Of a DNA stretch of 64,000 bases, positions 1-42,337 are shown one piece after another; position 1 is the stretch's first letter, and each line of letters opens with the position of its first letter. The notes below the pieces were generated by a model. The model saw only the letters and a list, made by a program, of their open reading frames with translations. It was not told where the DNA came from and did not search any database. The stretch is from Candidatus Latescibacterota bacterium (GTDB lineage: Bacteria; Latescibacterota; CBDEFO01). Position numbers and translations under genes: made by a program. Where the stretch lies: the NCBI GenBank assembly GCA_965237525.1, contig CBDEFO010000007.1, forward strand, positions 640,001 through 704,000. Reading direction: 5' to 3'.

Positions 1-768
1 GAAAAGTGGACGAACCAAACACACCGTTCGACTACAGACCCCGACGCGCGCTTATACAGCAAATCGAAGGGCAAAGGGGCTTTTCTCTCGTTTATGGGCC
101 ATGATCTGATCGACACAAAAAGCAGAGTAATCCTTGAGACTCAGGGCACGCAGGCGACAGGGACAGCAGAGCCCGAAAGTGCCCTTAAGATGGTAGATGA
201 CCTTGAAACATACACCATGCCCAAAGACATTCAGACACTTAGTGCCGATACCGGTTACGGTTCTGGTAATTTTATCGCTGATGTACTTGACCGGGGAATC
301 ATACCCCATATTCCTCTGCGAGCCGATGAGAAGATTGAACCGATTCCTACATGGAAAAACAAGACAAATCCAGCACATATTCAGGCCGAACGGGATAGAA
401 AAGTGCGAGAGGCGAAAGCCAGAAATCATGCACGGTCTATCTCATTAACAGCTGACTACAAACTCTCCCGGAGACTCCGTAAACGCAGTGAACATATCTT
501 TGCTGAAGCCAGGCAACAACACGGTATGGGACGAGCCCGTTATAGAGGACCAGCCTCACTGAATGAACAGTTGAATCTTGTTGCAACAGTACAGAATCTC
601 AAGAGGCTTGTATCTTTCATAAGAAGGGGGAAAGCGTCTATGTGTGCCCTGTCTGTCAAAGACAGTGCATCCTGTTCTTCAAACAGCTCCTATTCCTTGC
701 TGACCAGAACTCTGATAAGACTATTTTGCTTATTCCACAGCAAAACGATACGATATGCTTCTCTTTGA
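1..768 (+). CDS. IS1182-family DDE transposase, 5'-partial
   Basis: C-terminal half of the protein at 40929-42284; motifs SADTGYG and RKRSEHIFAEA..HGMGRARYRG. Confidence 0.9.
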   Translation, partial: EKWTNQTHRSTTDPDARLYSKSKGKGAFLSFMGHDLIDTKSRVILETQGTQATGTAEPESALKMVDDLETYTMPKDIQTLSADTGYGSGNFIADVLDRGIIPHIPLRADEKIEPIPTWKNKTNPAHIQAERDRKVREAKARNHARSISLTADYKLSRRLRKRSEHIFAEARQQHGMGRARYRGPASLNEQLNLVATVQNLKRLVSFIRRGKASMCALSVKDSASCSSNSSYSLLTRTLIRLFCLFHSKTIRYASL

Positions 769-821
769 CCCATAATCGGCGCTTCAGACGCTGCCTGGGA
801 CAAAACTATTTCACAAGGCTT
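1..821 (+). mobile_element. IS1182-family insertion sequence, copy 1 (left part outside the window)
   Basis: Nearly identical to 41517-42337 (about 6 substitutions seen by eye). Ends in right IR TTTCACAAGGCTT (809-821), followed by TTAG (822-825). Confidence 0.93.
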
Positions 822-909
822 TTAGAGCGACAAGAGTATATTTTCCGTCGTTTTTTGGTAGTGGTTGGCATTAAACACTTACAGGTAAATGAAGAAGAAA
901 GGTGACATT

Positions 910-2946
910 ATGAGCGAGGAGGAATCTGTAGAGGTTAGCGAAGCGGAAATAGCTGTTCACTGGCAGGAGGAGGCGTATTTCCACCCGTCAGCGCAATTTA
1001 TTGCACAGGCGAATATGACTGATCCGGGTATTTATGAACGGTTTAGTTTGGAACATTTTCCTGAATGCTTTAAGGAATACGCCGATATGCTTACCTGGTA
1101 TGAGTATTGGCATACCACACTTGATACGAGCGATGCCCCTTGCTGGAAGTGGTTTGTCGGCGGAAGGATAAATGCGAGCTACAACTGCGTTGACAGACAC
1201 CTGGAGAAGTATAAGAATAAAGCCGCAATTATCTATGTACCGGAACCGGAAGAGGAACCTCACGTGGCCCTAACTTATCAGGAACTATATGTAAGGGTTA
1301 ATGAGCTTGCTGCGCTTCTTCGAGACTTTACCGGACTTAAGGCTGGAGATCGCGTGACCCTTCATATGCCGATGGTTCCAGAACTCCCGATCACGATGCT
1401 GGCTTGTGCCAGACTCGGCGTAATTCACTCCGAGGTATATGGAGGATTTAGCGGCAGGGCGTGCGGCGAAAGGATATGGGACTCTGGAAGCCGTGTCCTG
1501 ATAACCATTGACGGTTACTACAGGTCAGGTGATCTCATCGATCACAAAGAGAAGTCTGACACTGCCCTTGGGGTAGCCGAAGAAAAGGGCCAAGCCGTCG
1601 ATAAAGTCCTGGTTTGGAGACGTCATCCCGGTAAATATGTTTCAAAGACGCCTATGGTAGAAGGTCGCGATTACTTTATGGACGAAGTGCTTTCCGAGTA
1701 TGCCGGTAGGAGAGTCGATCCAGTTCCTATGCCCGCTGAAGACCCTCTCTTCATTATGTATACCAGTGGGACAACTGGAAGCCCTAAGGGCTGTCAGCAC
1801 AGTACAGGTGGCTATTTAGCCTATGTTACAGGTACGTCAAAGTATGTCCAGGACATTCACCCGGAAGATGTTTACTGGTGCATGGCGGATATAGGGTGGA
1901 TCACGGGTCATTCATATATTGTTTATGGTCCGTTGTCCCTGGCTGCAACGAGCGTTATGTATGAAGGTGTACCTACTTACCCGGATGCCGGGCGCGCCTG
2001 GAGAATCGCCGAGCAACTTGATGTAAATATATTCCACACTGCTCCGACTACGATACGGATGTTAAGAAAAGCCGGTCCTGATGAGCCAAAAAAGTACAAT
2101 TACCACTTCAAGCATATGACGACAGTGGGAGAACCCATAGAACCAGAGGTGTGGAAATGGTATTACAAGGTCGTCGGTAAATGCCAAGCAGTCATTGTTG
2201 ACACATGGTGGCAGACGGAAAATGGAGGATTTCTCTGCAGCACTCTGCCGGCGCTTAAACCTATGAAGCCCGGCTCGGCAGGTCCCGGTATGCCTGGTAT
2301 CCATCCGGTAATCTACGATGAGGATGGGAATGAAGTTGAAGGGGGGACCGGTAAAGCGGGGAATATATGCATAAGGAACCCGTGGCCAGGGGCATTCCAG
2401 ACGATATGGGGAGATCGCGAGCGATATGTGAGCCAATATTACCAAAAGTATTGCAGAGACAAGGATAGTAAGGACTGGCGCGACTGGCCTTATTTTGCAG
2501 GTGATGCCGCCGTGCACGCTGAAGATGGATACTATCGAATTCTGGGCAGAATTGACGATGTCATCAATGTTGCCGGTCACCGACTCGGCACTAAGGAGTT
2601 AGAATCCGCTTGTCTTGTTGTCGAGGAAGTGGCAGAGGCAGCGGTTGTCCCCCTGGCTGATGAGTTGAAGGGTCGGGTACCTGATATCTATGTGTCTCTT
2701 AAGTCCGGCTACGAGCCCGACACAGGAATAGAAGATAAAGTTACAAAATCTATCGAGGCAGCAATTGGTAAAATAGCCAGACCCAAGCACGTTTACGTCG
2801 TACCCGACATGCCTAAGACTCGTTCTGGAAAGATTATGCGCCGTGTCCTGGCGTCTATCTCCAATAGGACGCACATCGGTGACGTAACCACATTAGCTAA
2901 CCCTGAAATTGTCGAGGAAATTCGACAAATGGTTCAAGGTAGTTAG
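910..2946 (+). CDS. acs: Acetate--CoA ligase (AMP-forming acetyl-CoA synthetase)
   Basis: YTSGTTGSPKG P-loop, ADIGWITGHSY, VDTWWQTE, GRIDDVINVAGHRLGT, PKTRSGKIMRR. ATG 910 preferred to 889 because an RBS-like AAGGTG precedes it. Confidence 0.96.
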   Translation: MSEEESVEVSEAEIAVHWQEEAYFHPSAQFIAQANMTDPGIYERFSLEHFPECFKEYADMLTWYEYWHTTLDTSDAPCWKWFVGGRINASYNCVDRHLEKYKNKAAIIYVPEPEEEPHVALTYQELYVRVNELAALLRDFTGLKAGDRVTLHMPMVPELPITMLACARLGVIHSEVYGGFSGRACGERIWDSGSRVLITIDGYYRSGDLIDHKEKSDTALGVAEEKGQAVDKVLVWRRHPGKYVSKTPMVEGRDYFMDEVLSEYAGRRVDPVPMPAEDPLFIMYTSGTTGSPKGCQHSTGGYLAYVTGTSKYVQDIHPEDVYWCMADIGWITGHSYIVYGPLSLAATSVMYEGVPTYPDAGRAWRIAEQLDVNIFHTAPTTIRMLRKAGPDEPKKYNYHFKHMTTVGEPIEPEVWKWYYKVVGKCQAVIVDTWWQTENGGFLCSTLPALKPMKPGSAGPGMPGIHPVIYDEDGNEVEGGTGKAGNICIRNPWPGAFQTIWGDRERYVSQYYQKYCRDKDSKDWRDWPYFAGDAAVHAEDGYYRILGRIDDVINVAGHRLGTKELESACLVVEEVAEAAVVPLADELKGRVPDIYVSLKSGYEPDTGIEDKVTKSIEAAIGKIARPKHVYVVPDMPKTRSGKIMRRVLASISNRTHIGDVTTLANPEIVEEIRQMVQGS

Positions 2947-3086
2947 AAGTCAGGCGTATCGGGCTTCAAATAGACGTGTTACGGCATATTCCGTCGTATT
3001 CGCATGGAATGAAATCAGAGTGTCTTGGTTAGCGTCATCTACACTACTAGAGATTGGGATCTCGCTACGCGAAAGAAGAGTTTCCG

Positions 3087-4151
3087 ATGCTAATAAACAT
3101 AAACAAGCTCATATCCCATTTAGTTCTGGTCATCTGCGTCGCCCTTGTTGTTGGCTGCGCAACCACAATTCCTTTCACAACTCCCCTGATAAACGCAGCC
3201 AGGGAGGGCGATACGGCTACCGTCGAAGCCTTGTTGGAAGCTGGCGCTGACGTCAATTTAAGAAACAAGGATGGCTTGAGGGCCCTGATGGCGGCGGCAC
3301 AGAAAGACCACACAGCTAGTGTCCAGAGCTTATTGGAGGCAGGTGCCGACGTCAATGCAAAAGACAAGGGTGGCAGGACAGCGCTAATGTGGGCGGCAGC
3401 GAAAGGCCACATTGCTACAGTCGAAGCCTTGTTAGACGCGGGCGCCAATATAGATACGCGGGATAAGAATGGGCTAACAGCTCTTATGGTGGCAGCACAC
3501 GAGGATCAAACTGCTATTATAAAAGTCTTGTTGAAGGCGGGCGCCGACGTCAACGCGAAAAACAAGGATGGCAGAACTGCCCTAACCGTGGCCGCCTATA
3601 GAGGCCACAACACCACTGTCAAAGCTTTGCTTGAGGGGAGTGCTGATGTCAAAGCCAGAGACCTGGTGGATCAGACGGCCTTAATGTGGGCTGCAGTAGC
3701 TGGCCAAACGACTTCCTTGGAGATATTGCTGGAGGCTGGGGCAAACGTCCATGCAAAAAGGATGGACGGTAACACCGCACTGATACTGGCAGCAGCAGGG
3801 GCCCAATCTGCCGCCGTGCAAACCTTGCTGGGGGCGGCGGCCGACGTCGATGCGAGAAACAAGGATGGCTGGACAGCCTTGATGTTTGCGGCACAGGAGG
3901 GCTACACTGCTGTCGTCGAGGCCTTACTGGAGGTGGACGCCGACATCAACGTGAAAGAAGGGCTTGTTGGACAGACAGCCCTGATGTTTGCGGCCTTTTA
4001 TGGGCACACTGGTGCCTTGCAGACCTTGTTGGCGGCGGGTGCCAAGGTCAATGTCGAAGATGCAGTCGGCCAAACGGCCTTGATGCTTGCGGTATCGAAA
4101 GGCCACACCGACGTAGTTCAATTGCTGAAGGAAGCCGGGGCCAAGAAATAG
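3087..4151 (+). CDS. Ankyrin-repeat lipoprotein (~10 repeats)
   Basis: Repeated G-x-TALM-x-AA-xx-G-H...LLEAGADVN units; hydrophobic N-terminus with lipobox LVVG|C. Confidence 0.92.
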   Translation: MLININKLISHLVLVICVALVVGCATTIPFTTPLINAAREGDTATVEALLEAGADVNLRNKDGLRALMAAAQKDHTASVQSLLEAGADVNAKDKGGRTALMWAAAKGHIATVEALLDAGANIDTRDKNGLTALMVAAHEDQTAIIKVLLKAGADVNAKNKDGRTALTVAAYRGHNTTVKALLEGSADVKARDLVDQTALMWAAVAGQTTSLEILLEAGANVHAKRMDGNTALILAAAGAQSAAVQTLLGAAADVDARNKDGWTALMFAAQEGYTAVVEALLEVDADINVKEGLVGQTALMFAAFYGHTGALQTLLAAGAKVNVEDAVGQTALMLAVSKGHTDVVQLLKEAGAKK

Positions 4152-4363
4152 AAGATGCAGTTGTAAAGTGTATAGAGACAGAGATAGGCGAAATAGCCAG
4201 GCCGAAGCACGTCTATATCGTACCCGATATGCCTAAGACTCCTTCTGGCAAGATTATGCGCCGTGTCCTGGCGTCTATCTCTAATAGGACAGACATTGGT
4301 GATGTAACTACATTAGCTAACCCGGAAATTGTCGAAGAAATTAGAAAAACGGTTCAAGGGTGA
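4147..4363 (+). repeat. Diverged duplicate of the acs 3' end (~72 codons, no start codon)
   Basis: Colinear with 2727-2946, no indels up to the stop. Translates IEDAVVKCIETEIGEIARPKHVYIVPDMPKTPSGKIMRRVLASISNRTDIGDVTTLANPEIVEEIRKTVQG*. Confidence 0.95.
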
Positions 4364-4453
4364 CTTGTCTGCGAAGAGTCGAGTGGCCAGACAGTTTATG
4401 TCATTGCTCATCGAAAGGATAACCTTATCAGGTAAATACAAAAGAGAACTCAA

Positions 4454-5893
4454 GTGATCCTTTCGAAAGATCAAATAAGGCACATTCACCTTGTGGGCAT
4501 CTGCGGCACGGCAATGGGAGCCTTAGCCGGGATGCTCAAATCAGGTGGATATAGAGTCACAGGCTCAGACAGCGGCGTCTATGAGCCTATGAGCACTTTT
4601 TTGAGAGCCCTCGAAATCCAGGTTTTTGAGGGTTTTTGCTCTTCTAACTTGAACCCCCCGCCCGATTTAGTCGTTATAGGCAATGTGATCTCCAGAGGAA
4701 ATAGTGAGGTCGAAGAGGTCTTAAACAGAAAGATAAGATACGCCTCTATGCCCGAGGCACTTAAGGACTTCTTCATCAGGGGCAAGCGATCCTTTGTAGT
4801 AACCGGGACGCATGGAAAGACCACTACGACCTCCCTTTTGGCCTGGGTCATCGAAAGTTCAGGAAGAGACTCCAGCTTTATGGTCGGTGGTATCCCCTTA
4901 AACTTCAACGCCGGATACAAGTTAGGAGAAGGAGAGGACTTCATCATCGAAGGCGACGAATACGACACAGCCTTCTTCGACAAGGGACCCAAATTTCTCC
5001 ACTATCTTCCCGATGTAGTCATAATCAACGGCATCGAATTCGACCACGCCGATATATACAGGGATCTCGATCAGATCAAAACTTCCTTCGGACGTCTGAT
5101 CAACATAATACCCTCAGATGGTCTCCTTGTAGCATCTGCGGACGATGAGAACGTCTCCCAACTCATTCCCAATGCCTTTTGCCAAGTTAGGACCTTCGGT
5201 TTCTCCAAAAATGCCGATTGGAGAGCTGAAAATATGGGCTTTAAGCCTCGTGGCGTATCGTTCGATGTCAGTGGATACGGCAATTTCTTCATACCTCTTA
5301 TCGGGGAGCACAACGTAAGAAACACACTTGCTGTCATTGCTACAGCCGACTTTATAGGACTTTCCCGGGAGCAGATCAAAAGAGGCCTAAGCACTTTCAA
5401 ATGTGTAAAGAGACGCCTTGAGATAAGGGGAGTTGTAGATGGGATAACTGTAATAGACGATTTTGCCCATCATCCCACGTCGGTCAAAGAGACTCTGAGA
5501 GGGCTCAGAAAATCCAATCCCAAAGTTAGAATATGGGCACTTTTCGAGCCTGCAAGTGCCACGAACGCAAGGAGCGTATTCGAAGAACGATACAATGAGG
5601 CGTTCGATTGTGCTGATAAGATTGTTCTGGCCAAAGTCCCAAAGCCAGAAAGGGCTGGAGAAGATGAGAAGATGTCTATGCAAAGGGTAGCAAGGACCCT
5701 GAGAAATAGCGGTAAGGACGCTCTATATATACCGGAAGTAGATGATATAGTAGAAAATCTTAAAGAGAAGCTGATGAAAGGCGATATTGTGCTTGTAATG
5801 ACTAACGGGAGCTTCGGTGGAATACACGACAAGATCCTTAACGTTCTTACGAGTGTAAAGAATGATACTCAAGCCGCCGCCGCTAGAACCTGA
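4454..5893 (+). CDS. mpl: Murein peptide ligase (UDP-MurNAc:L-Ala-gamma-D-Glu-mDAP ligase)
   Basis: GICGTAMG, TGTHGKTTT, EGDEYDTAFFDKGPKF, EFDHADIY, DDFAHHPT, MTNGSFGGIH. Confidence 0.92.
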   Translation: MILSKDQIRHIHLVGICGTAMGALAGMLKSGGYRVTGSDSGVYEPMSTFLRALEIQVFEGFCSSNLNPPPDLVVIGNVISRGNSEVEEVLNRKIRYASMPEALKDFFIRGKRSFVVTGTHGKTTTTSLLAWVIESSGRDSSFMVGGIPLNFNAGYKLGEGEDFIIEGDEYDTAFFDKGPKFLHYLPDVVIINGIEFDHADIYRDLDQIKTSFGRLINIIPSDGLLVASADDENVSQLIPNAFCQVRTFGFSKNADWRAENMGFKPRGVSFDVSGYGNFFIPLIGEHNVRNTLAVIATADFIGLSREQIKRGLSTFKCVKRRLEIRGVVDGITVIDDFAHHPTSVKETLRGLRKSNPKVRIWALFEPASATNARSVFEERYNEAFDCADKIVLAKVPKPERAGEDEKMSMQRVARTLRNSGKDALYIPEVDDIVENLKEKLMKGDIVLVMTNGSFGGIHDKILNVLTSVKNDTQAAAART

Positions 5894-6788
5894 AGATACG
5901 ATAGGCATCGTCTCCCCTTCGGGAAGAGTGAAAGGGAAGGATCTCCAAGGCGGGATAGAGTATCTGCGACAGAGAGGGTATAAGGTCAAGGTAGGGAAGA
6001 GTGCCTACGGGTCGAAGGGCTACTTGGCCGGAGGCGATGACCAAAGGGCGCAGGATATAAACGATATGTTCTGCGACCCCGAAGTTAAAGCTATATTCGC
6101 ATCCAGGGGTGGATACGGATCTACTCGAATATTGGACAAGATAGACTACGATCTTATAAGGAGAAATCCCAAGATATTCGTGGGATTTTCAGATACCACA
6201 GCCCTTCAGTTGTCCATATTCAGATACACGGGACTTGTGACCTTCTCAGGAGTTCTCGCAGCTGTGGACATGAAGGATGCAAAGATGAATGGGCTTACTG
6301 AAAAGACTCTGTGGGATCTGCTGACGAAGGGGAGAATAGACATTATAGAGGGACTCGAAATTATGAAAGGGGGATCTGCGGAAGGGAAACTTTTGGGCGG
6401 TTGTCTTTCAATTATGTGTTCCCTTCTGGGGACCGCCTACCAGCCCGATTTAAAGGGGGCCATCCTCTTTCTTGAAGACGTAGACGAAGCGCCCTACCGC
6501 ATAGATAGGATGTTAACGCAACTGAGTCTGTCCGGTCTACTGCAACAAGTTAGCGGGATCATATTAGGGCAATTTCAAGACTGCTTCGATAGAGATGAAT
6601 CCTCCGAGGTTGAAGAACTTTCCTTAAAGGATATGGTAGATGACCTAATGTGCGACCTGAACATCCCCATCCTTTCCGATCTTCCCTACGGGCATTTTGC
6701 AAGTAGGGTCGTCCTTCCCATAGGCGTAAATGCCAGGATAGACGGGAATACAGGTAAGTTGGAGATAACTGAGAGTGCATTGGATTAA
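5862..6788 (+). CDS. ldcA: LD-carboxypeptidase, peptidase S66
   Basis: RGGYG, GFSDTTAL (catalytic Ser), LFLEDVDE (Glu), PYGH (His); adjacent to mpl. Confidence 0.92.
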   Translation: MILKPPPLEPEDTIGIVSPSGRVKGKDLQGGIEYLRQRGYKVKVGKSAYGSKGYLAGGDDQRAQDINDMFCDPEVKAIFASRGGYGSTRILDKIDYDLIRRNPKIFVGFSDTTALQLSIFRYTGLVTFSGVLAAVDMKDAKMNGLTEKTLWDLLTKGRIDIIEGLEIMKGGSAEGKLLGGCLSIMCSLLGTAYQPDLKGAILFLEDVDEAPYRIDRMLTQLSLSGLLQQVSGIILGQFQDCFDRDESSEVEELSLKDMVDDLMCDLNIPILSDLPYGHFASRVVLPIGVNARIDGNTGKLEITESALD

Positions 6789-6825
6789 GTAATTTTCAAC
6801 ACTCAAAACCCAAAGGAGGTACTCC

Positions 6826-8297
6826 ATGAAGATTCGGGTTTTCTATGGGTTCATTTTCGTTCTGTTCTTTTTCCGTCCCAGCGGTGCGCAGACGATCACT
6901 CCAGAAGAGTTCCTCAAGTTGATTAAACAGAGTCATCCCTATCTTCGCAAAAGAAGCGATGTCATCGGAAATTGAAAAGAGGGGGAAAGAGCGATTCCTC
7001 GGTTCACAGGACTGGGTCATCCGTTCTGCCTATCTTTCCGCTCATCAGAAACCGGTCAGCACGAGCACATTTGCTCCCAAGAGGATCGATGGGGTGGGCG
7101 TCGCCACAGCTATTGAGAGGGCCTATTGGAACACTGGGGGGAGACTCTCTCTCCTGGTCATCCGACTTTACAGATCAGAATTTACCGGATATTGTCGTTC
7201 CGGGCCCTTCAGGGAGTTTTCGCATCCCAACGGGGCCATCACAGTTTTATCAGAACAAGGTTCTCCTGACCTACTCCCAGCCACTCCTGCAAAATTTCAA
7301 AGGAAAACTGGATCGGCTCGACTACGAATTGAGCGGGTACACTGTCAACTTCACCGAATTACAGGCCTTTGAGAATCAAGAAGGGTTCCTTCTGGACTTG
7401 GGGATCCGGTTTTTGGACTGGGTTCTGCATTCCGAACAGATACAGATCTCCAATGAGCGTCTGCGTCTGGCGGAGGAGGAACTGCAACAGACAAAGAGAA
7501 AGCGAGCCGCAAACCTGGTGGATCGGGTGGACGTTTTGCGAGCTGAGGATGCCGTCCGGATCGCCAAGCAGAATATCGTGCTGATTGAATCTCAGTGGAA
7601 GGCGAAACAGGCGGAATTGGCAGTTCTGGCCCAGTCCCAGGAACTTTACAACCAGAGCCCAGAGTTTGATCTTTACAACCTGGAAGCCCTGCCTCCTCTC
7701 GATGAGGCTGTCTCACGGTTGAAGGAACAATCGAGACTTCTTCAGGCTCTTGTAATCCGGAGGGAGCAACTTTCCCATCTGCGCGAGGGTTTTGTAGAGA
7801 TGAGCCGCCCGCAACTTTTTCTCAACGTCAGTGCGGGGCTACAGGAAGGCGATGATGGGTTTGGCGGTTCTCTACTTTTGGACAAGCCGTATTTGGCTGT
7901 CTCCCTTAATTTCAGCTATCCGCTGGAGAATCGGACCGCCCGGGCAGATATCGCAAAGACGGATCTGCAACTGCGACAAATAGAGAAGGAGATCGAAAAC
8001 GTGGCGTTGGACCTCAAAGCCGGTGTGAGGAATCTTTTGATCCAAATCAAAGAGCTAGAAAAGGTCCTCGCCCTCAACCAGGAACAGATCGAGTCGGCGA
8101 GGGAGAAAACACAGGAAGAGCTCCGGCTCTATAATCAGGGTCGTGGGGAACTGACCTTTGTCATCCAGAGTCGGGACAATGAGGAGAATGCAAGACTGAC
8201 CTATGCCCAAAATGGAGCCAGCTACCACAAGTTGATCCTTCAGTACCACTCCCTTATGGACAAGCTTCTCCCCTCAAGCCTCACGGAGCGTGAATGA
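6826..8297 (+). pseudogene. TolC-family outer-membrane efflux protein, two frameshifts
   Basis: RBS GGAGGT, ATG 6826 and signal peptide MKIRVFYGFIFVLFFFRPSGA-Q. The frame changes near 6940 (into ORF 6959) and near 7150 (into ORF 6972). Coiled-coil OEP-like body. Confidence 0.8.
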
Positions 8298-8359
8298 AGT
8301 TTCGCCTATGGGGTTTACTGAGCTATCTAGAAATGCATTTGATCAGGAGGTAACAAACG

Positions 8360-11300
8360 ATGAAATCGTTCTTCAGATTTTTTGCAGAACGTCATATACT
8401 GGCGAATCTGGTCACCCTGATGACCATCCTGCTCGGCGTGAGCACCTTTACGCACATCAAACGCGATATATGGCCTCAAGTGGATTTCGGTATAATGATT
8501 ATCACCACTCGCTACCCGGGCGCTTCGCCGGAGGATGTGGAACTGAACGTCACCAATAAGATCGAAGAGGAGTTGAGCGGTGACCGGTATCGAACGGATG
8601 ACCTCTGTTTCCATGGAGAATATCTCAGTCATCACCGTGGTCATCGACCCCGACGCGAGCGATCAGGATGAAATTGAGAATGAAATTCAGGAAGCAGTGG
8701 GCCGTGTTACGGATTTTCCGGTTGAGGTGACCGAATCGCCCCTGGTTACAGAGGTAGAAACCTCAATCTTTCCGGTGATCGAAGTGGGACTTACAGGAGA
8801 TCTGCCCTACAAAGAGCTCCGGGAAATCGCCAGAAGATTTGAGAAGAAACTGGAGGCTATTCCCGGCGTATCGAGCGTAAAGAAGTATGGTTACCTTGCC
8901 CGGGAGATCGAGGTAGAGGTCTCCCCTTCTGCGATCCGTGAGTATCAGATCCCTTTGCGAGAGATTATCACAGCTATTCAAGGTCGCAACATCCGCGCTA
9001 CAGGCGGTTCCTTTGAATCCTATACCAGCGAAAAGAACCTGGTCACTCTGGCTCAGTTTAAAGACCCCATCGAAGTGGGGGACGTCATTGTCCGATCCAC
9101 CTTCGAGGGACCTCTCATCAAAGTGAAGGACCTGGCGATTGTGAGGGACGGCTTTGAGGACGAGAGAATTCTCTCCCGTATGAACGGCAAGCAAGCAATT
9201 TCCTTTGAGGTCAAGAAAAAAGAGAGCGCCGATGCCATTCGAACCGTTGATGCCGTCAGGGAACTTGCCAAAAAAGAAAGCGAGAATCTCCCCCAGGGCG
9301 TTGAGATTCTCTATTCTAACGATTTCTCTCGTTATGTTCGTAATCGCTTCGATGTCGTCCGCACTAATGGTCTGATCGGTCTTGTATTCGTAATCATTAT
9401 GTTGTCCCTTTTTCTCACTATTCGCAATGCATTTTGGGTCGCCATAGGCATCCCCGTGGCTTTGCTGGGTACGATCTTCCTGATGCCCCTCTTCGACGTC
9501 TATCTGGATAGCATCTCTCTTGCCGCCATGATCATAGTGATAGGGATCATTGTAGATGACGGGATTATTATCGCTGAAAACATACAACGCCACCGAGAGA
9601 AAGGGAAACCGCCACTGGAGGCGGCTGTAGAAGGGATACGAGAAGTTTTTCCACCGGTTCTAACCACCATCCTCACTACGTTCTTAGCCTTTGCCCCTAT
9701 GTTCTTCATGTCGGGCATGATGGGAAAATTCGTCTTTGTCATTCCCCTGGTGATCACCCTGGCTCTGTTCATCTCTCTCTTTGAGGTGATCGTAGCTCTA
9801 CCGGCCCATCTCATCAAGGGGTTTCGCCACGGCCCGGGAGGAAAAGTCAGACCTCTACGTCGAAATTGGTTCCAGCTCGTAGAAGATCCCTTCCAGCGTA
9901 TACTATCTCGCCTTCTTCGATTCCGATACGCTCTGGTCGGACTATTCGTCCTTCTCCTTGCGGGCTCTCTCTGGTATGCCGCTAAGTTTATGAAATTTGA
10001 ACTTTTTTCGTCCAGTACGGCAGAGCAATTCATGATTCTCATGGAACTTCCAACGGGAACGTAACTGCAAGCCACTTCCGACAAAGTGAAAGAGACCGAA
10101 GAGTTAGTAGCAGGTTTGCCTGAGGGTGAGTTGGAATCATTCGTCACCCGGGTTGGAAGTCAGGAAGTGTTGCAGGCATCGGGGTTCCCGCCTGGCGAGA
10201 ACGAAAACTGGGCTTTTATAAATATCAGCCTTAGCCCCTTCACTGAACGATCAAGGCTTGCAGACGAGATTGTGAAGGACCTTCGACAGAAGACCAATAA
10301 ACTCCAGGGATTTGATAGAATCATTTATTCTGTTGAGGTAGGTGGGCCTCCTGTCGGAAAACCGATCACCTTCCGGGTGGTTGGATCCAACGATGCACAA
10401 AGGAGGGAGCTTGCCGATTCCGTAGAAGTCTTTCTGGGAAAGTTAGAAGGTGTGAAGGACATTCACAGGAACGACAGCGTGGGAAAAGAGCAGGTCGAGA
10501 TCAAGATCAACTACGACAAACTCTCAAGGCTGGGCCTCACTGTAGCCGATGTGGCGCAGAATGTTCGCATCGCCTATGACGGTGAGGTGGTGACCAGCGT
10601 GCGCTACGGCGACGAAGACGTGGATTTTCGCGTATTGCTTCAGGAGAAAGCTCGCAAAAGACCCAAATATCTGAATGAGCTCCCCATCCCCAATCGGAGG
10701 GGACGCCTCATCCCCTTGAAAGAGGTCGCTTGGTTCAAAACAGGTCCCGGTCCCTCCAATTACTACCACTTTGATGAGGAACGAGCAATTACGATTACGG
10801 CCGACATCACCAAAGACAAAACGACTCCCTTAGAGGCTACTAGTGCTATCGTTGCCCATTTCAACCTGGACACAGATTGGCCGGGCATGCGATTTGTTGT
10901 GGGGGGACAAGCGGAGGAGACTCAGAAATCGATGGTCAGTCTTTTTAAGGCATTTGTTCTCGCAATTGTCGCGGTCTATTTCCTTCTCATACTCCTCTTT
11001 AACTCTCCAACCCAGCCGATCACAGTTATGATGGCCATCCCTTTCGGGATTATGGGCGTCATCTTGGCGTTTGCTCTCCACGGTGAAGCGCTCGGTTTTG
11101 TGGCAATGATGGGTGTGATCGGCCTTGTTGGTGTTTTGGTCAACGACTCCTTAGTCCTGGTCAGCCACATCAATAGGCTTAGACGGCAAAGACCCGATGA
11201 AAGCATCACCAAACTGGTGGCGGAAGGCACCTCTGATCGCCTGCGAGCGGTTGTATTGACGACTCTGACAACCGTTGTGGGACTCCTGCCGCTGGCCTAT

Positions 11301-11456
11301 GGTCTTGGCGGGAGTGATCCGTGGATGGCTCCCATGGCTTTAGCATTGGCTTATGGCCTATTGTTCGCCACCCCTCTTACCCTGATCCTGGTTCCCTGTC
11401 TTTATGCAATCGGTCAAGACCTAGGAAGGATTTTCAGGAGAGGCGAAAAGGGATAA
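8360..11456 (+). pseudogene. AcrB/AcrD/AcrF-family RND permease, frameshift plus nonsense codon
   Basis: YPGASPEDVE N-terminus, GIIVDDGIIIAENI, RLRAVVLTTLTT. Frameshift near 8575; in-frame TAA at 10062-10064 with the same frame continuing to 11456. Confidence 0.9.
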
Positions 11457-11518
11457 ACGTAATGGAAAAGTTGAAAACAGCGCGGCATCACATTTCGTGG
11501 CGAAAGTGTAGTCTTGTG

Positions 11519-11711
11519 TCTGCGGTCGAAGAACTATCCTTAAAGGACATAGTAGATGACCTTATGCACGGTATAAATATCCCTGTCTTATCCGATCTTC
11601 CCCACGGGTATTTTGCAAGTAGGGTCGTTCTTCCCATAGGCGTAAATGCCAGCATAGACGGGAATAGAGGTAAGTTGGCAATGACTGAGAAAGCAGTAGA
11701 TTAGGCAATTT
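11519..11711 (+). repeat. Diverged duplicate of the ldcA 3' end (~61 codons plus 7 nt past the stop)
   Basis: Colinear with 6603-6795. Translates VEELSLKDIVDDLMHGINIPVLSDLPHGYFASRVVLPIGVNASIDGNRGKLAMTEKAVD*. Confidence 0.95.
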
Positions 11712-11904: not shown

Positions 11905-12021
11905 GAATAATGGTGTGAGACTAACTCCAGCGCCATAGTCCACCTTAGGTGCAAGTGTCCCATCTCCATTATTCAACAACACTGATAGCGTGCTAGTTTA
12001 GGCTGGCACGCTATTTTTTTT
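11905..12021 (+). ncRNA. Candidate stand-alone small RNA (~115 nt)
   Basis: Starts ~7 nt after the -10 box. Perfect 9-bp closing stem GAATAATGG/CCATTATTC, inner helices, then a terminator. No + strand gene downstream. Confidence 0.55.
11985..12021 (+). terminator. Rho-independent terminator
   Basis: 12-bp stem ATAGCGTGCTAG/CTGGCACGCTAT running into T8. Confidence 0.85.
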
Positions 12022-14104: not shown

Positions 14105-17100
14105 ATGAGCTTCCGCGACTGAGCCAAAAATGCTTTCTTGCTGATAGCAGTTTTGTTGATCGCTATTCCTCGCCTCTCCTACAGCCGGACGATCACCGTA
14201 CCCCCATCGAGGTAGCCGATTATCCGACCATCGGTCAGGCTATGGCGACAGCTTTGTCGGGGGATACCATTCGGGTCAGCCCCGGGACGTATCGGGAGTC
14301 GGTGGGGTTGAAGTCGGGTGTGGTGGTGTTGGGAAATGGCTACGAGAATACCCGCATTGAGATAGACATTCTGGCCAATCCTGTGTACGCTGTGAACGTC
14401 TCGGATGCCAAGATCTCAGGCTTTACCCTCGCCTACACGGGCACCGAGATACCAGCTACGGTCTATGTCCAGTCCTCCCGGGTGACGATCTCCAATTGCC
14501 GGATTCTCAACACCACAGTTTCGGGGGTCTACGCTATAGAGGAATCCGAAGTGACTGTCGAAGGCTGTATTGTGGAACAGAACGAAGGCCACGGCGTTGT
14601 CATATCTGGCGGTTCGAAGGGGAGTATTCGGGACAGTCAGATCCAGGCTAACCGGTTGGATGGTCTCATCTTCGCCGGAGCGTCATTCGGGGACGTGATG
14701 GGGAATACCGTTACTGGAAACCGTGCTAACGGGATAGAGGTATATGGAGCAGGACCTGTGACGATTTCTGGCAACGTGACATCGGCTAACACCTATACTG
14801 GTATCCGGGCAGCGGACACCTCGCAAGTGGACATTCAGGGGAACACGGTAGTGGAGAATGGGACGTATGGGGTGTTGGTTCAGTCAGGGAGCGTGGCTAC
14901 TCTAGTGGACAATCTCGTGGAACGGAACATGGCTTCTGGCATCGTCATGACTGGTGGTTCACAGGGGAGTATCCGGAACAGTCAGATCCAGGACAACCAG
15001 GTAGATGGGCTTTTTTTCGGTGGAGCGTCGTTTGGAGAGGTAACGGGCAACACTGTGACCGGGAATGGAGCCAACGGGGTTGAGGTGATTGGAGCAGGTC
15101 CGGTGACGATGTTCGGCAACGTGACATCGGGCAACACCTACGCTGGTATCAGAGCGGCGGACACCTCGCAAGTGGACGTTCGGGGGAGCACCACAATTGA
15201 GAATGGGACGTATGGGGTGTTGGTTCAGTCAGGGAGCGTGGTCTCCATCGTGGACAATATTGTGGTCTGGAATTCGATTGGTGGTATCTACACGAAGGGT
15301 GGAGAGGCGGGGGATGGGATCATCTCGGAGATCGGTTACAACGATGTCTGGGACAACGGCGTCACGGTTCAAATGACCGGCAACTTATCCAACTACCAGG
15401 GTCTTCAGGCGCCAGCAGAGGACATGTCCGTCAACCCTTTCTTTTTAGACGATGCGGCAGGGGACTATCGCCTGCGGTCCAATTCGACCCTGATCGGTGC
15501 GGGAAGGGACGGAGGGACCGTCGGCGCACTGGGCATTGTGTCCCCTAAAGAGGAAAGTGCCGTCCCTTCACCGGTCTTCATCCGGGCGTTTCCTGACACT
15601 GCCTACTGGACGCTGCTGCAGGGACAGGCCTGGCTGAGCGTGGATATCTACATCATGGTGGGGAACCTCGTCAGCTTTATACCGGACGAAGTGGAAGTGA
15701 GGTTCTTCGGGGAGGACGGGGGTATCGTCGTGTCAGAACGCATCCCGGCCTCGGACTTCAGAGCGACATCTGCTGCAATCGAGACGGATGTGACGAACCT
15801 TTGGATGGTGTGGGATGCGACGCTGACAGAGCTGAAATCCCCAACGCCCCTGGAGGTTCCCCCAGGAGGACGGTCCATTTTTCTTCCCAAAGAGCACCCC
15901 TTTCCCCAGGCCGATCTCCCGGTGAGAGCTGAGTACGTAGTCCGGGGGCAGGAGGGGGGCAGAACCGTAGAACTGGTGCGCGAAGTCGTCCCTGAAATCT
16001 ACCGTCAGCGCACTGACCTTCGCTTCCCCATGCGCGGGGGTGGATGGCAGGTCATCGCTGGCCCCCCTCAGGACAATCACCGGCACCGTGCGACAACTTT
16101 CCGGCGCAGAACCCTGGCGATGCCCGGCCGCTACGCGATGGACATCTGGAGGAGCTACCGGGGGTACGGGGCTCCCATGTATGCACCGGGGGTCGGCCGT
16201 GTCGTCTTTGTGAGGAACGACGCAGATGAGCCGGCCTTCGGAGAGGAGATTCCCGGGGGTGAGTCCAACACCGTCGTGATCGACCACCAGAACTGCGAGT
16301 ACAGCTTTATGCTCCATCTTAAGAGGGGCTCGGTGGCGGTAGAGGTCGGACAGTGGGTGGAACAAGGCGATCTCATAGGGGCGCTGGGCAATTCGTTCGA
16401 CAGGTGGAACGTCCCCCACCTCCACTTTGAGGTCAGGGACAGCTACATTTGGCCGGGTGAGGGCCTTCCGGTGGCCTTCACCGGAGGAAGGATCCTGGGC
16501 ACGGAGATTCAGGACGGCATGCTATTCAGTGGGGCTTTCTTTGAGAAGGAATCCCTCGGGCCGGTTCTCCACGTGGCGGCAGACTGGAGTGCGGACTACA
16601 GGACCATTAGTGACGCGATGGCCGTGGCTGTCATGGGTGATACAGTGCGGGTAGCTCCGGGCACATATCGGGAGACTGTATGGTTGAAGTCCGGGGTGGT
16701 GGTGCTGGGAAGTGGCTACGAGGGTACCCGCATAGAGATAGACATTCTGGCCAACCCTGTATACGCCGTGAACGTCTCAGATGCCAAGATCTCCGGCTTT
16801 ACCCTCGCCTACACCGGCACGGAGTCACCGGTCACGGTCTTTGTCGACTCCTCCCAGGTGACGGTCGCCAACTGCCGGATTACCAACACCACGGTTTCAG
16901 GGGTCTACGCCGTGAATGGATCTAAAGTGACCGTCGAAGGGTGTCTTTTGGAACAGAATGAGGGTTTTGGTATTGCCATATATGGTGGTTTCGGAGGGGT
17001 ATATCTGGGACAATCAGATCCGGGATAACCGGTTGAATGGGGTTGTCTATGCCGAAGCGTCCTTTGGGGAGCTGATGGGGAACACTATCACCGGGAATAA

Positions 17101-18439
17101 GGCCAACGGACTGGTGATCGCTGGTTCCGGAGCGGTGACCGTTACCGGCAACGTGCTTGCGCGAAACAGCTGGGCGGGCATCATAAGTCTTACGGAGTCC
17201 GAATTGGAGGTTCGGGGAAACACGATCGTGGAGAACGGGACGTATGGGATTTTGGTTCTGTCGAGGAGTGTGGCTTCCATCGTAGACAATATCGCGGCCA
17301 GCAATCTGATCGGGATTTCCGTACAGGGCGGCGAAGAGGGAGATGGCGTTGTCTCGGAGATCGGGTACAATGATGTATGGAATAACCGTAGTGGAAACTA
17401 CTTAGGGTTTCCCTCTAGCCCTGAGTTGGATCTCTCCGTAGACCCACGATTCGTCGATGCGGAGGCCGGCGATTACCACTTATGGAGCGACTCTCCTTTA
17501 CTCGGAGCTGGGAAAGACGGAGGTACAATCGGAGCGTTCGGTATTCTGGAGGCCAGACGTCTGCTGGGAGACGTGACGGACAATGGTGTGGTAACAGCCT
17601 ACGATGCTGTCCATATTCTCCAGCACACAGTGGGACTGCAGGCGTTGACCGGTGAGGATTCTGTAGCTGCAGATGTGAGTGGTGACACCACTATCTCTGC
17701 GTACGATGCTTCGCTGGTGCTGCAATATGTAGTCGGGCAAATCTCTCGTCTCCCTGTGAGGGGAGGACAGACAGCAAAGGTAGCATATGCCACTCGGACG
17801 GTCTGGATGGGTGAGATGAAGGCGTTGTCGGATGGACGGCTGTGTCTGCCCATCTTGATAGACGAGATGGACGGTGTGGTCGCTGGAGAGATGAGGCTGT
17901 CCGTTGAGGGCAATGAAGGAAATGTGACGGTCAGAAGCACGGTCATCACTTCCGACTATCTGCTTGCCAGCAACGTCCAGAACGGTCGCATCAGAGCATC
18001 GTTCGCGGGAGCCGAGTCGAGTACCGGCCCCGGGCCGGTGCTGGAGGTTGTGTTCGCTGCATGGGACGCCGGACTCCTGGGTACCTTGAGGCTGGAGCGT
18101 GTGTCGCTGAACGAAGGGAGGATACCGGTAAGCATCCAGGGAGTCGCATCTGAGACACCCACAGTGTATCGGCTCAGTCAGAACTATCCAAATCCATTTA
18201 ATTCACAGACAGCGATCCATTATGACCTTCCCATACAAAGCCATGTCAACATATCTGTCTATAATATGATAGGACAGAAGGTTGCAATACTGTTGGATAA
18301 AGGGATAGAAGTAGGTACCTACTCTTTAATCTGGGATGGCAAAGATGACAACGGAGAGGACCTTGCCAGCGGAGTCTATCTGTATCGGATAGAAGCGGAT
18401 GGATTTGTGCAGACAAGGAAGCTGGTCTTGATGCGTTAG
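14105..18439 (+). pseudogene. Large secreted protein: two right-handed beta-helix blocks, M23 peptidase, dockerin, cohesin-like domain and C-terminal sorting domain; disrupted
   Basis: RBS AAGGAGG. The signal peptide contains TGA at codon 6 and a frameshift near 14205; a second frameshift lies near 16990. PbH1-type repeats; M23 motifs YAMD/MLHL/PHLHF; GDVTDNG..AYDA..DVSGD..SAYDAS dockerin; QNYPNPFN..SGVYLYRI..TRKLVLMR tail. Confidence 0.85.
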
Positions 18440-40818: not shown

Positions 40819-42337
40819 AAGCCTTGTGAAAAACCCTTAGATTCAGAAAGTAGTATAGAACAAGCATTGATAAAGCAGCTCCGATGTATTATATTATGTT
40901 ATTGATAATATTATACATGGAGGAAACAATGACCCCACAAAAGCAGGAACAGACAAATCCGATGTTTCACTATTTTCAGATGGAGGATTTAGTTCCCGAG
41001 GATCATATCCTTCGTCAGATTGATGAGGCAGTTGATTTTTCATTTGTACGAGACGTTGTATCAGATTGTTATTGCCCTGACAATGGCAGACCCGGTATTG
41101 ATCCTGAATTAGTTGTTCGAATGATCCTTATTGGCTATCTGTATAATTTGAGTGAGAATCGGCTCTGTCAGGAAGTGGGGATGCATGCGGCATATCGGTT
41201 GTTTTGTCATCAGACATTTGATGATGCGGTTCCGGATAGGAGCACGATCAACAAGCTTCGCAATCACAAGTGGGCATCCAGTGGGTTGTTTGAACGGATA
41301 ATGCGTCAGGTAGTCCAGTGTTGCATAGATGTCGGTCTTGTGAGCGGTAAACACCTTAGTGTCGACGGTACTCAGATACAAGCTGATGCTTCAGTGAAAA
41401 GTATTGAGCCGATAGAACCCCCTGTTTCTCTTGATGATTATCTCAAGGGAATCGGTTTTGAAGGTGATAAGACAAAGGGTAGGTCCGGGCATCCTCAGGA
41501 TAAAGACTTTCATGGTGAAAAGTGGACGAACCAAACACACCGTTCGACTACAGACCCCGACGCGCGCTTATACAGCAAATCGAAGGGCAAAGGGGCTTTT
41601 CTCTCGTTTATGGGCCATGATCTGATCGACACAAAAAGCAGAGTAATCCTTGAGACTCAGGGCACGCAGGCGACAGGGACAGCAGAGCCCGAAAGTGCCC
41701 TTAAGATGGTAGATGACCTTGAAACATACACCATGCCCAAAGACATTCAGACACTTAGTGCCGATACCGGTTACGGTTCTGGTAATTTTATCGCTGATGT
41801 ACTTGACCGGGGAATCATACCCCATATTCCTCTGCGAGCCGATGAGAAGATTGAACCGATTCCTACATGGAAAAACAAGACAAATTCAGCACATATTCAG
41901 GCCGAACGCGATAGAAAAGTGCGAGAGGCGAAAGCCAGAAATCATGCACGGTCTATCTCATTAACAGCTGACTACAAACTCTCCCGGAGACTCCGTAAAC
42001 GCAGTGAACATATCTTTGCTGAAGCCAAGCAACAACACGGTATGGGACGAGCCCGTTATAGAGGACTAGCCTCACTGAATGAACAGTTGAATCTTGTTGC
42101 AACAGTACAGAATCTCAAGAGGCTTGTATCTTTCATAAGAAGGGGGAAAGCGTCTATGTGTGCCCTGTCTGTCAAAGACAGTGCATCCTGTTCTTCAAAC
42201 AGCTCCTATTCCTTGCTGACCAGAACTCTGATAAGACTATTTTGCTTATTCCACAGCAAAACGATACGATATGCTACTCTTTGACCCATAATCGGCGCTT
42301 CAGACGCTGCCTGGGACATAACTATTTCACAAGGCTT
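40819..42337 (+). mobile_element. IS1182-family insertion sequence, complete copy (1519 bp)
   Basis: 13-bp IRs AAGCCTTGTGAAA/TTTCACAAGGCTT; 4-bp target duplication TTAG (40815-40818, 42338-42341). Confidence 0.95.
40929..42284 (+). CDS. IS1182-family transposase
   Basis: LVPEDHILRQID, GRPGIDP, VDGTQIQADAS, STTDPDAR, ADTGY, SEHIFAEAK; RBS GGAGG. Confidence 0.93.
   Translation: MTPQKQEQTNPMFHYFQMEDLVPEDHILRQIDEAVDFSFVRDVVSDCYCPDNGRPGIDPELVVRMILIGYLYNLSENRLCQEVGMHAAYRLFCHQTFDDAVPDRSTINKLRNHKWASSGLFERIMRQVVQCCIDVGLVSGKHLSVDGTQIQADASVKSIEPIEPPVSLDDYLKGIGFEGDKTKGRSGHPQDKDFHGEKWTNQTHRSTTDPDARLYSKSKGKGAFLSFMGHDLIDTKSRVILETQGTQATGTAEPESALKMVDDLETYTMPKDIQTLSADTGYGSGNFIADVLDRGIIPHIPLRADEKIEPIPTWKNKTNSAHIQAERDRKVREAKARNHARSISLTADYKLSRRLRKRSEHIFAEAKQQHGMGRARYRGLASLNEQLNLVATVQNLKRLVSFIRRGKASMCALSVKDSASCSSNSSYSLLTRTLIRLFCLFHSKTIRYATL

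Follow-up and report, generated by a model that had tools for sequence, protein, structure and literature searches.

A 64,000-nt stretch of the genome of a Candidatus Latescibacterota bacterium (contig CBDEFO010000007.1, positions 640,001 to 704,000; hereafter the window) carries on its plus strand, in this order, acs, an ankyrin-repeat gene, mpl, ldcA, a TolC-like gene and an RND permease gene (Table 1). A sequence-only reading of this DNA had noticed that acs and ldcA are each followed by cargo genes and then by an orphan second copy of their own 3' end, and this layout stands, since blastn of the window against itself finds both repeats and the gene names hold by profile matches. The acs repeat pairs 2724-2939 with 4144-4359 (183 of 216 positions identical, 84.7%; E 1e-63), and the ldcA repeat pairs 6608-6795 with 11524-11711 (158 of 188, 84.0%; E 8e-53). 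Both are ungapped, so the tails are colinear as claimed, but their lengths are 216 and 188 bp rather than the ~217 and ~193 bp first given. Homology begins and ends sharply, with no further acs or ldcA sequence. The ldcA repeat spans the stop codon, the acs repeat stops one to two codons short of it, and both genes are full length. The insert units measure 1,420 bp (acs) and 4,916 bp (ldcA) and contain only the ankyrin, TolC and RND genes.

The ldcA gene, its cargo and its orphan are spanned by single short-read unitigs in two studies, X3 (7,734 bp, no differences), which is probably the source sample of the genome, and X4 (10,637 bp, 20 differences). The ldcA unit is therefore no assembly chimera. 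At acs the check for misassembly, for which the sequence-only reading had proposed long reads, is less direct because the short-read unitigs break at a 32-bp identical stretch (2830-2861). The three pieces of the acs unit have depths of 11, 11.9 and 11.7 in X3, and less even ones in X4 (20.5, 17.6 and 13.7); the equal depth in X3 fits a linear arrangement without proving it. The tail-cargo-tail layout is real at both genes.

A complete (one-contig) genome of the same genus, G001, which is ~95% identical in aligned DNA to the source genome (G000), provides the empty site that the sequence-only reading had suggested looking for. Among 31 genomes searched with Mpl, G001 alone has a close orthologue, and its locus reads acs-mpl-ldcA-dehydrogenase with neither insert present. 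Neither cargo matches anywhere in the whole G001 genome, apart from one weak RND match of 156 bp. In run X6, a contig with ~96% identity to the window joins 2796 to 4217; it may stem from the G001 species and is not counted as an independent empty site.

Alignment with G001 reveals that both tail pairs are reciprocal mosaics, in which the gene-attached copy is first host-like and then foreign, and the orphan first foreign and then host-like. The crossover inside the gene that had been proposed is thus borne out, with the alleles switching at 2796/2797 in acs and within 6752-6762 in ldcA. A single switch accounts for 30 of 32 informative sites in acs and 27 of 30 in ldcA, a fit equalled by 0 and 3 of 100,000 permutations, respectively. 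If G001 represents the pre-insertion allele, there are 11 bp of identical bases at the ldcA switch and 0 bp at the acs switch. No shared motif was apparent by eye at the switch points in five alignments (acs, ldcA and three other loci), no formal motif search having been made. The foreign gene ends differ from G001 at 3 of 47 residues (acs) and 4 of 11 (ldcA), and the orphan 3' halves at 3 of 143 and 0 of 44 bases, compared with ~5% genome-wide. Because the 5' part of each orphan is foreign and only its 3' part resident, the exchange appears to have been reciprocal and to have occurred in mid-repeat, which would make the orphan half incoming and half resident. This comparison does not support the idea that the orphan is nothing but the resident tail, displaced and then rejoined illegitimately (acs orphan: 55/73, then 140/143). 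Identity to G001 varies in patches along acs, mpl and ldcA (window 889-6800), reaching 100% over 400 bp and falling to 83-88% per 100 bp. This variation suggests that alleles were often exchanged with divergent relatives.

Table 1. Positions in the window of the two host genes, their cargo, the duplicated gene ends and the points at which the alleles change. Fractions are identities to G001, except for the inverted copy.
Feature	Position	Strand	Remarks
acs, acetate--CoA ligase, intact host gene 1	889..2946	+	TIGR02188 above cut-off; 95.9% to G001
Gene-attached acs tail	2724..2939	+	host-like 2724-2796 (73/73), foreign 2797-2939 (130/143)
acs allele switch point	2796..2797 (4216/4217 in orphan)		from alignment with G001; 32-bp stretch 2830-2861 is the longest identical one nearby
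Degenerate inverted copy of acs-tail sequence, directly behind acs stop	2944..2985	-	matches orphan allele (4201-4243), core 26/34 to that allele
Cargo 1: ankyrin-repeat protein, probable lipoprotein	3087..4151	+	open reading frame and ankyrin profile matches; absent from G001
Orphan acs tail	4144..4363	+	foreign 4144-4216 (55/73), host-like 4217-4359 (140/143)
mpl, murein peptide ligase, host gene separating both inserts	4454..5893	+	TIGR01081 above cut-off; protein 94% identical to G001
ldcA, LD-carboxypeptidase (S66), intact host gene 2	5862..6788	+	profile matches
Gene-attached ldcA tail	6608..6795	+	host-like to 6751 (138/144), foreign past the switch (35/44)
ldcA switch interval	6752..6762 (11668-11678 in orphan)		11 identical bases
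Cargo 2a: TolC-like outer-membrane efflux gene	6826..8297	+	OEP/TolC match; frameshifts near 6941 and 7144
Cargo 2b: RND permease, three pieces	8360..11456	+	frameshift near 8575, in-frame stop 10062-10064; without adaptor gene
Orphan ldcA tail	11524..11711	+	foreign to 11667 (123/144), host-like after (44/44)

The heavy synonymous divergence between the copies that had been reported is confirmed. The acs copies differ at 19 of 49 synonymous and 13 of 161 non-synonymous sites (ratio of non-synonymous to synonymous divergence, dN/dS, 0.16; Fisher p 1.6e-6), and the ldcA copies at 11.5 of 40 and 16.5 of 137 (dN/dS 0.36; p 0.0075). With both values far below 1, the proposal that the two versions of each tail were under purifying selection also holds. 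It extends to the foreign halves, which are synonymous-biased before the acs switch (dN/dS 0.14), after it (0.13) and before the ldcA switch (0.31), and all tail halves long enough to test evolved under purifying selection. Relative to G001, the resident half of the acs orphan carries 3 non-synonymous substitutions and no synonymous one; of the three, that at 4242 turns KTRSGK, kept in 120 of 120 listed homologues, into KTPSGK, and to judge from these substitutions this half looks recently silenced.

A further trace is found at the start of the ankyrin cargo, in the form of an inverted acs fragment (34-43 bases) that scores 38 against the orphan, 18 against the gene-attached copy and 22 against G001. 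Its part at 2952-2985 has the orphan's base at all four diagnostic pre-switch sites, and an equally high score was reached by 1 of 3,000 shuffles and by 1 of ~4,000 random genome segments. The simplest reading, to which this moderate evidence points, is that the orphan 5' half and the cargo start may once have been on one molecule. As the fragment carries the orphan 5' allele, it would tie that half to the incoming molecule, which is what a circular donor requires. A hairpin formed from it would be weak (z -1.7).

Is this layout confined to two genes? We screened 2,885 open reading frames (ORFs) of at least 540 nt in G000 for low-copy orphan matches within 20 kb of the parent. Orphan tails gave 23 hits downstream and 3 upstream (p 9e-5), orphan heads 17 upstream and 3 downstream (p 0.003), and gene middles only 4 in all, so the predicted recurrence of the layout across the genome is found. 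In G001, 62% of which was screened, there are 9 tails downstream and 2 on the other side, and 9 heads upstream and 1 on the other side. Clean cases by eye, named after their G001 orthologues, include the tails of tpiA, gcvPB, rlmN and the genes for a nicotinate phosphoribosyltransferase, an RND permease and a sigma-54 regulator, and the heads of glyA and a lipid kinase gene. The glyA, lipid kinase and sigma-54 regulator orphans are common to both genomes, and the process is consequently older than the G000/G001 split. Scar-bearing genes number 37 of the 2,885 ORFs (~1%), an uncurated count. At ~24 tail cases per 2,885 ORFs, our arithmetic gives ~0.4 neighbouring pairs expected by chance; the acs and ldcA pair is unremarkable at this frequency, and two cases within 9 kb do not call for the special explanation that had been sought.

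Several loci show related arrangements. In G000, a 641-residue gene (probable S9 peptidase, by eye) at C8:1488673-1503735 is preceded by an orphan head and followed by two orphan tails, a pattern suggestive of serial insertion into a single gene. In G001, a 563-residue gene with the look of a large serine recombinase (by eye; C1:2464241-2480519) has its own tail twice, 7.5 and 14.5 kb downstream. At C8:1015528-1016556 in G000, a 90-bp head repeat of a histidine-phosphatase-like gene brackets a 260-residue gene, whose product we take to resemble an aminoglycoside nucleotidyltransferase.

Comparison of insertions and deletions (indels) between the two genomes, which covered 2.82 of the 4.54 Mb (62%) of G001, yielded 127 segments extra in G000 and 114 extra in G001. 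In 93 and 64 of these, respectively, the overlap is 12 bp or less, and many have the size of an insertion sequence (IS). We aligned 17 + 17 indels with an overlap of 30-1,500 bp and sufficient anchors, and most proved to be arrays of paralogues or repeats with many copies. Among them, mosaics of two copies with unrelated cargo in between were confined to acs, ldcA, C7:604267 and, more weakly, a BMC-gene tail in G001. The case at C7:604267 is a mosaic against an empty site, with a cargo of 1.56 kb and 13 of 14 sites explained, while the BMC-gene tail is filled in G001 and empty in G000, its mosaic being weak (12 of 15 sites). Numerous insertions of 1,308 bp and 1,523 bp also distinguish the two genomes.

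As had been noted from the sequence, the window offers no obvious machinery for these insertions. It contains no tyrosine or large serine recombinase (no match to PF00589 or PF07508), the nearest recombinase match being ~95 kb off at C7:547852; 11 of the 15 tyrosine-recombinase matches listed for the genome lie above the cut-off. No terminal inverted pair is present in the ldcA unit, and the sole 34-bp inverted pair of the acs unit is acs-derived sequence. A profile search detected no transposase in either cargo. An IS1182-family transposase gene lies just 5' of acs, outside both inserts; this IS1182/IS5-like transposase is present in two 99%-identical copies (window 1-822 and 40884-42284), and the acs-side copy is absent from G001. 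G000 has predicted recA, comEC and two dprA-family genes (C3:249764 and C7:729086) in open frames, which would be compatible with DNA uptake and homologous recombination.

As for the donor, DNA identity in the foreign half of ldcA is 85%, yet a search of 5.8 billion proteins turned up no other LdcA closer than 53%. This points to close kin, probably an unsampled close relative. Protein searches for the donor alleles returned a nearest non-genus Acs tail at 87% and LdcA at 53%, and no donor. The ankyrin cargo has no relative over 48% among 120 listed. A metagenome scan with Mpl, from which 80 loci were kept, gave best matches of 45-54% identity and no close relative, and so no third species by which to orient the change. 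The TolC-RND pair has a patchy distribution in other phyla and families, and ldcA was never found beside it in six loci (two in G002, one in G029, and those titled Zixiibacteriota, Glassbacteria and Deltaproteobacteria) compared by tblastx, some with short flanks. In both G000 and G002, an adaptor gene is neither between nor beside the pair. Two loci with the pair have neighbours assigned by eye, a probable HlyD-like gene that follows in L259 and a probable TetR-like gene that precedes in L258.

The cargo genes are ordinary. The ankyrin protein has a lipobox-like VVGC motif and is presumably a lipoprotein, and the stop of its gene overlaps the start of the orphan acs tail. In G000, the TolC-RND cargo has three frameshifts and one stop, which break both genes; public run X4 differs from the window at all three frameshift places, and the pair is apparently less broken there. 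No restriction (R) or modification (M) match was found among the cargo ORFs scanned with profiles. An 80-codon frame running from 11461 into the orphan ldcA tail was rejected as a chance frame, having no Pfam match and lacking one base at 11474 in runs X1 and X4. A scan for promoters and terminators was uninformative (8 and 9 sites against 10.0 and 9.5 expected). As for the host gene ldcA, its product matches PRK11253 below the cut-off of that profile and both S66 Pfam domains above theirs.

Other features of the window lie apart from the inserts. A lone 61-bp piece at 11927-11987, common to G001, belongs to a many-copy repeat that is often ~147-bp spaced elsewhere in both genomes and has very deep coverage in public runs; read on the minus strand, we take it for an FG-GAP/VCBS repeat remnant. 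A large secreted protein with a parallel beta-helix and an M23-like domain is encoded at 14242-18439, split near 17000, and a large secreted subtilase-like protein (by eye) at 42948-47903; both have probable dockerin-like and C-terminal sorting domains, again by eye.

We favor, with a probability of about 0.6, the reading that each insert arose when a small circular DNA that came from a related species integrated through one reciprocal crossover of the RecA type. What we infer in this reading is that a circle existed, that RecA acted on it, that the DNA entered by natural transformation, that the G000 lineage gained the inserts and that the donor belonged to the same poorly sampled family. A small circle would have carried ~200 bp of the relative's gene end together with the gene or genes that follow it there. 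One reciprocal crossover between the resident gene end and the circle, likely catalyzed by RecA without an element-encoded recombinase, would restore a full-length gene whose last 11-47 codons are foreign. The cargo would end up behind the rebuilt gene on the same strand, and the hybrid tail would be stranded beyond it and then decay. Insertions via internal fragments would break the gene and be purged, only head or tail events sparing it, which would explain why tails and heads dominate, with the orphans on the gene-sparing side. The 32-bp identical stretch in acs falls within the 25-35 bp of identity cited for RecA in the available part of one source (PMC6382021), and we count it in favor of a RecA-type crossover.

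Several points weigh against this reading. A deletion between the repeats in the ancestry of G001 would yield an identical three-way pattern, and the genus is represented by two species only. The free circle was not seen among the assembled contigs, the reading does not account for the formation of a first circle, and Ku was not found in the 97%-complete G000 genome. In acs, identical bases are lacking right at the switch, which lies 33 bp left of the 32-bp stretch, so that branch migration or later mutation must be assumed, and the longest identical run in the ldcA repeat is only 23 bp. According to the accessible text of PMC6382021, a divergence of 15% cuts transformation ~1,000-fold. No donor in which acs adjoins an ankyrin gene, or ldcA a TolC gene, came to light in the metagenome scan or in the relatives' loci examined. 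The polarity counts come from an automated screen that missed acs itself and whose hits take in decayed paralogues, and wrong-side tails are also synonymous-biased (ratio of non-synonymous to synonymous differences, pN/pS, ~0.5). In ldcA, only 11 codons follow the switch, too few to reveal selection (p 0.47). The inverted fragment was found post hoc and in 1 of 13 loci checked, the other 12 being negative.

The alternative that fares best reverses the direction of change. The inserts would predate the G000/G001 split, having entered by one homologous crossover at the upstream edge and an illegitimate joint, in the manner that the sequence-only reading proposed and much as in homology-facilitated illegitimate recombination, and G001 would later have lost each cargo by deletion between the repeats, which would leave a hybrid allele that merely looks empty. 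It predicts the same left/right pattern by construction, and other orphans (glyA, lipid kinase, sigma-54 regulator) are indeed common to both genomes. Loss is plausible for a TolC-RND cargo already decaying in G000, and deletion between repeats has been observed in the laboratory at icd/icdC, as far as the accessible part of that report goes (PMC13626634). We nevertheless find it unlikely, because two independent losses in adjacent genes are required and the G001 tails have none of the orphan's damage. The orphan 3' halves are also much closer to G001 (3/143 and 0/44) than the ~5% genome-wide difference, though identity at the locus is patchy, and the inverted fragment matches the orphan 5' allele instead of the gene-attached one, the opposite of what is predicted.

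Linear DNA from a relative that already had the tail-cargo-tail unit could also have recombined twice, once in each repeat copy, both times with the single resident tail. No circle is then needed, comEC and dprA are present, and linear uptake is the normal transformation route in the part of PMC6382021 available; patches in acs and mpl with 87% to 100% identity to G001 are a sign of allelic exchange. We consider this quite improbable, since independent crossovers seldom coincide and here the left switch lies within 1 bp of the right one in acs and within 11 bp of it in ldcA, leaving no zone between them that is foreign in both copies. Long donors would recombine in the kb-long flanks instead, and the first origin of the unit is left unexplained.

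A site-specific recombinase acting in trans, or since deleted, might have integrated non-autonomous elements into gene ends, and the geometry does resemble attL/attR, as for e14, which is flanked by icd and the icdC tail pseudogene (PMC13626634, in its accessible part). The genome also has the 11 tyrosine-recombinase matches above cut-off, among the 15 listed. It is very improbable all the same, with no recombinase in either cargo and the nearest match ~95 kb away, switch points at five loci (acs and ldcA among them) that share no motif by eye, and targets that are many unrelated genes, at their heads as well as their tails. It is scarcely credible that the orphans derive from local duplications or from old paralogues once full length, or that the assembly of two strains produced a chimera, for although many other G000 repeats are tandem paralogue arrays and the acs unitigs break at the 32-bp stretch, dN/dS is far below 1, the homology edges are sharp with no further acs or ldcA sequence, the copies are mosaic against G001 and the ldcA unit is spanned by unitigs from two studies.

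If integration of a circle by one crossover is correct, a tail-cargo-tail unit, once complete, could be looped out again through the same reaction and would need no dedicated enzyme to spread. It is a tentative and rather doubtful extension that such units are self-perpetuating integrase-free cassettes, which use a gene end as a homing handle and move between species ~15% apart without harm to the target, a general and under-counted route of gene gain. Were it true, island finders would miss these units because they require an integrase. Independently of this, the two loci offer a base-resolved natural case of additive gene gain without a mobile-element enzyme, in which the crossover is pinned down to 1 to 11 bp, and selection for events that spare the gene shows in the side the orphans occupy. 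Should such events be common, they would supply a share of the accessory genes of competent environmental bacteria and leave gene ends inconspicuously mosaic, and the circle model put forward for rhs in 2009 could be tested on ordinary genes. No new enzyme or system is revealed, and the cargo functions are generic.

The sequence-only reading had considered the route possibly undescribed, but two published schemes fit the inserts, the circle model for rhs and insertion with long target duplication. The latter was reportedly described by Nobusato et al. in 2000. In the available part of the study by Furuta, Abe and Kobayashi (2010; PMC2853133), the insert is <20 kb with no other mobile element, flanked by direct repeats of >30 bp that are single copy at a relative's empty site. 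In many cases the repeat includes a start or stop codon, so that the target gene is spared, and most of the species are competent; the cargo consists of restriction-modification (RM) genes, the repeats in Table 2 of that study are 45-47 bp and 93-100% identical, and DNA breakage by the restriction enzyme is suggested as the cause. The acs and ldcA inserts are similar in having repeats (216 and 188 bp), an empty G001 site, units <20 kb and spared genes. They differ from what is described there in their cargo, ankyrin and an efflux pair, and in repeats that are 84-85% identical and reciprocal mosaics of two selected alleles.

Among systems with an orphan 3' fragment downstream of an intact gene on the same strand, the closest is rhs C-terminal displacement (Jackson et al. 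2009; PMC2935791). The accessible text proposes a looped-out circle with a conserved fragment and the following genes, which by a single crossover elsewhere shunts the old end downstream as an orphan, without an integrase; circle and single crossover are the same model as ours. In contrast to rhs as presented in that text, with variable toxin tips, one family, near-identical cores and long orphan arrays, acs and ldcA contribute unrelated housekeeping ends. Their new ends are near-synonymous, and what is gained is the cargo. In insertion-duplication (Campbell-type), a non-replicating circle with one chromosomal fragment integrates by a single crossover and duplicates the fragment around foreign DNA; in the part of PMC11658436 available this is a laboratory method using identical fragments, whereas our units are natural and 15% divergent.

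Prophage e14 at icd/icdC and the integrase islands (Islander elements), in the available portions of PMC13626634 and PMC4383910, have a restored gene at one end and a displaced 3' fragment at the other, and excision gives a chimeric gene. The restored target, the displaced fragment at the far end and the empty site in a relative are shared with the acs and ldcA inserts; however, those elements encode an integrase and use a fixed site, which these inserts do not. Homology-facilitated illegitimate recombination, the RecA-dependent capture of DNA via one homologous anchor in competent bacteria (PMC6382021, same portion), would be compatible with the putative comEC, dprA and recA genes, but by our inference it would leave a duplicated copy that is wholly host-like, whereas the orphan 5' parts are foreign, a difference that holds only if G001 is ancestral. 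IS elements and composite transposons differ too, the cargo having no transposase and no terminal inverted repeats of its own. PMC3787668 bears on these inserts only through minimal mobile elements. A full-text literature search, with supplements and most subscription papers outside it, brought up no report of housekeeping genes whose ends are duplicated around cargo as divergent alleles. This is a known kind of event and probably no new gene-capture machine: the acs and ldcA inserts work like known systems and belong to none of the rhs, RM or integrase classes.

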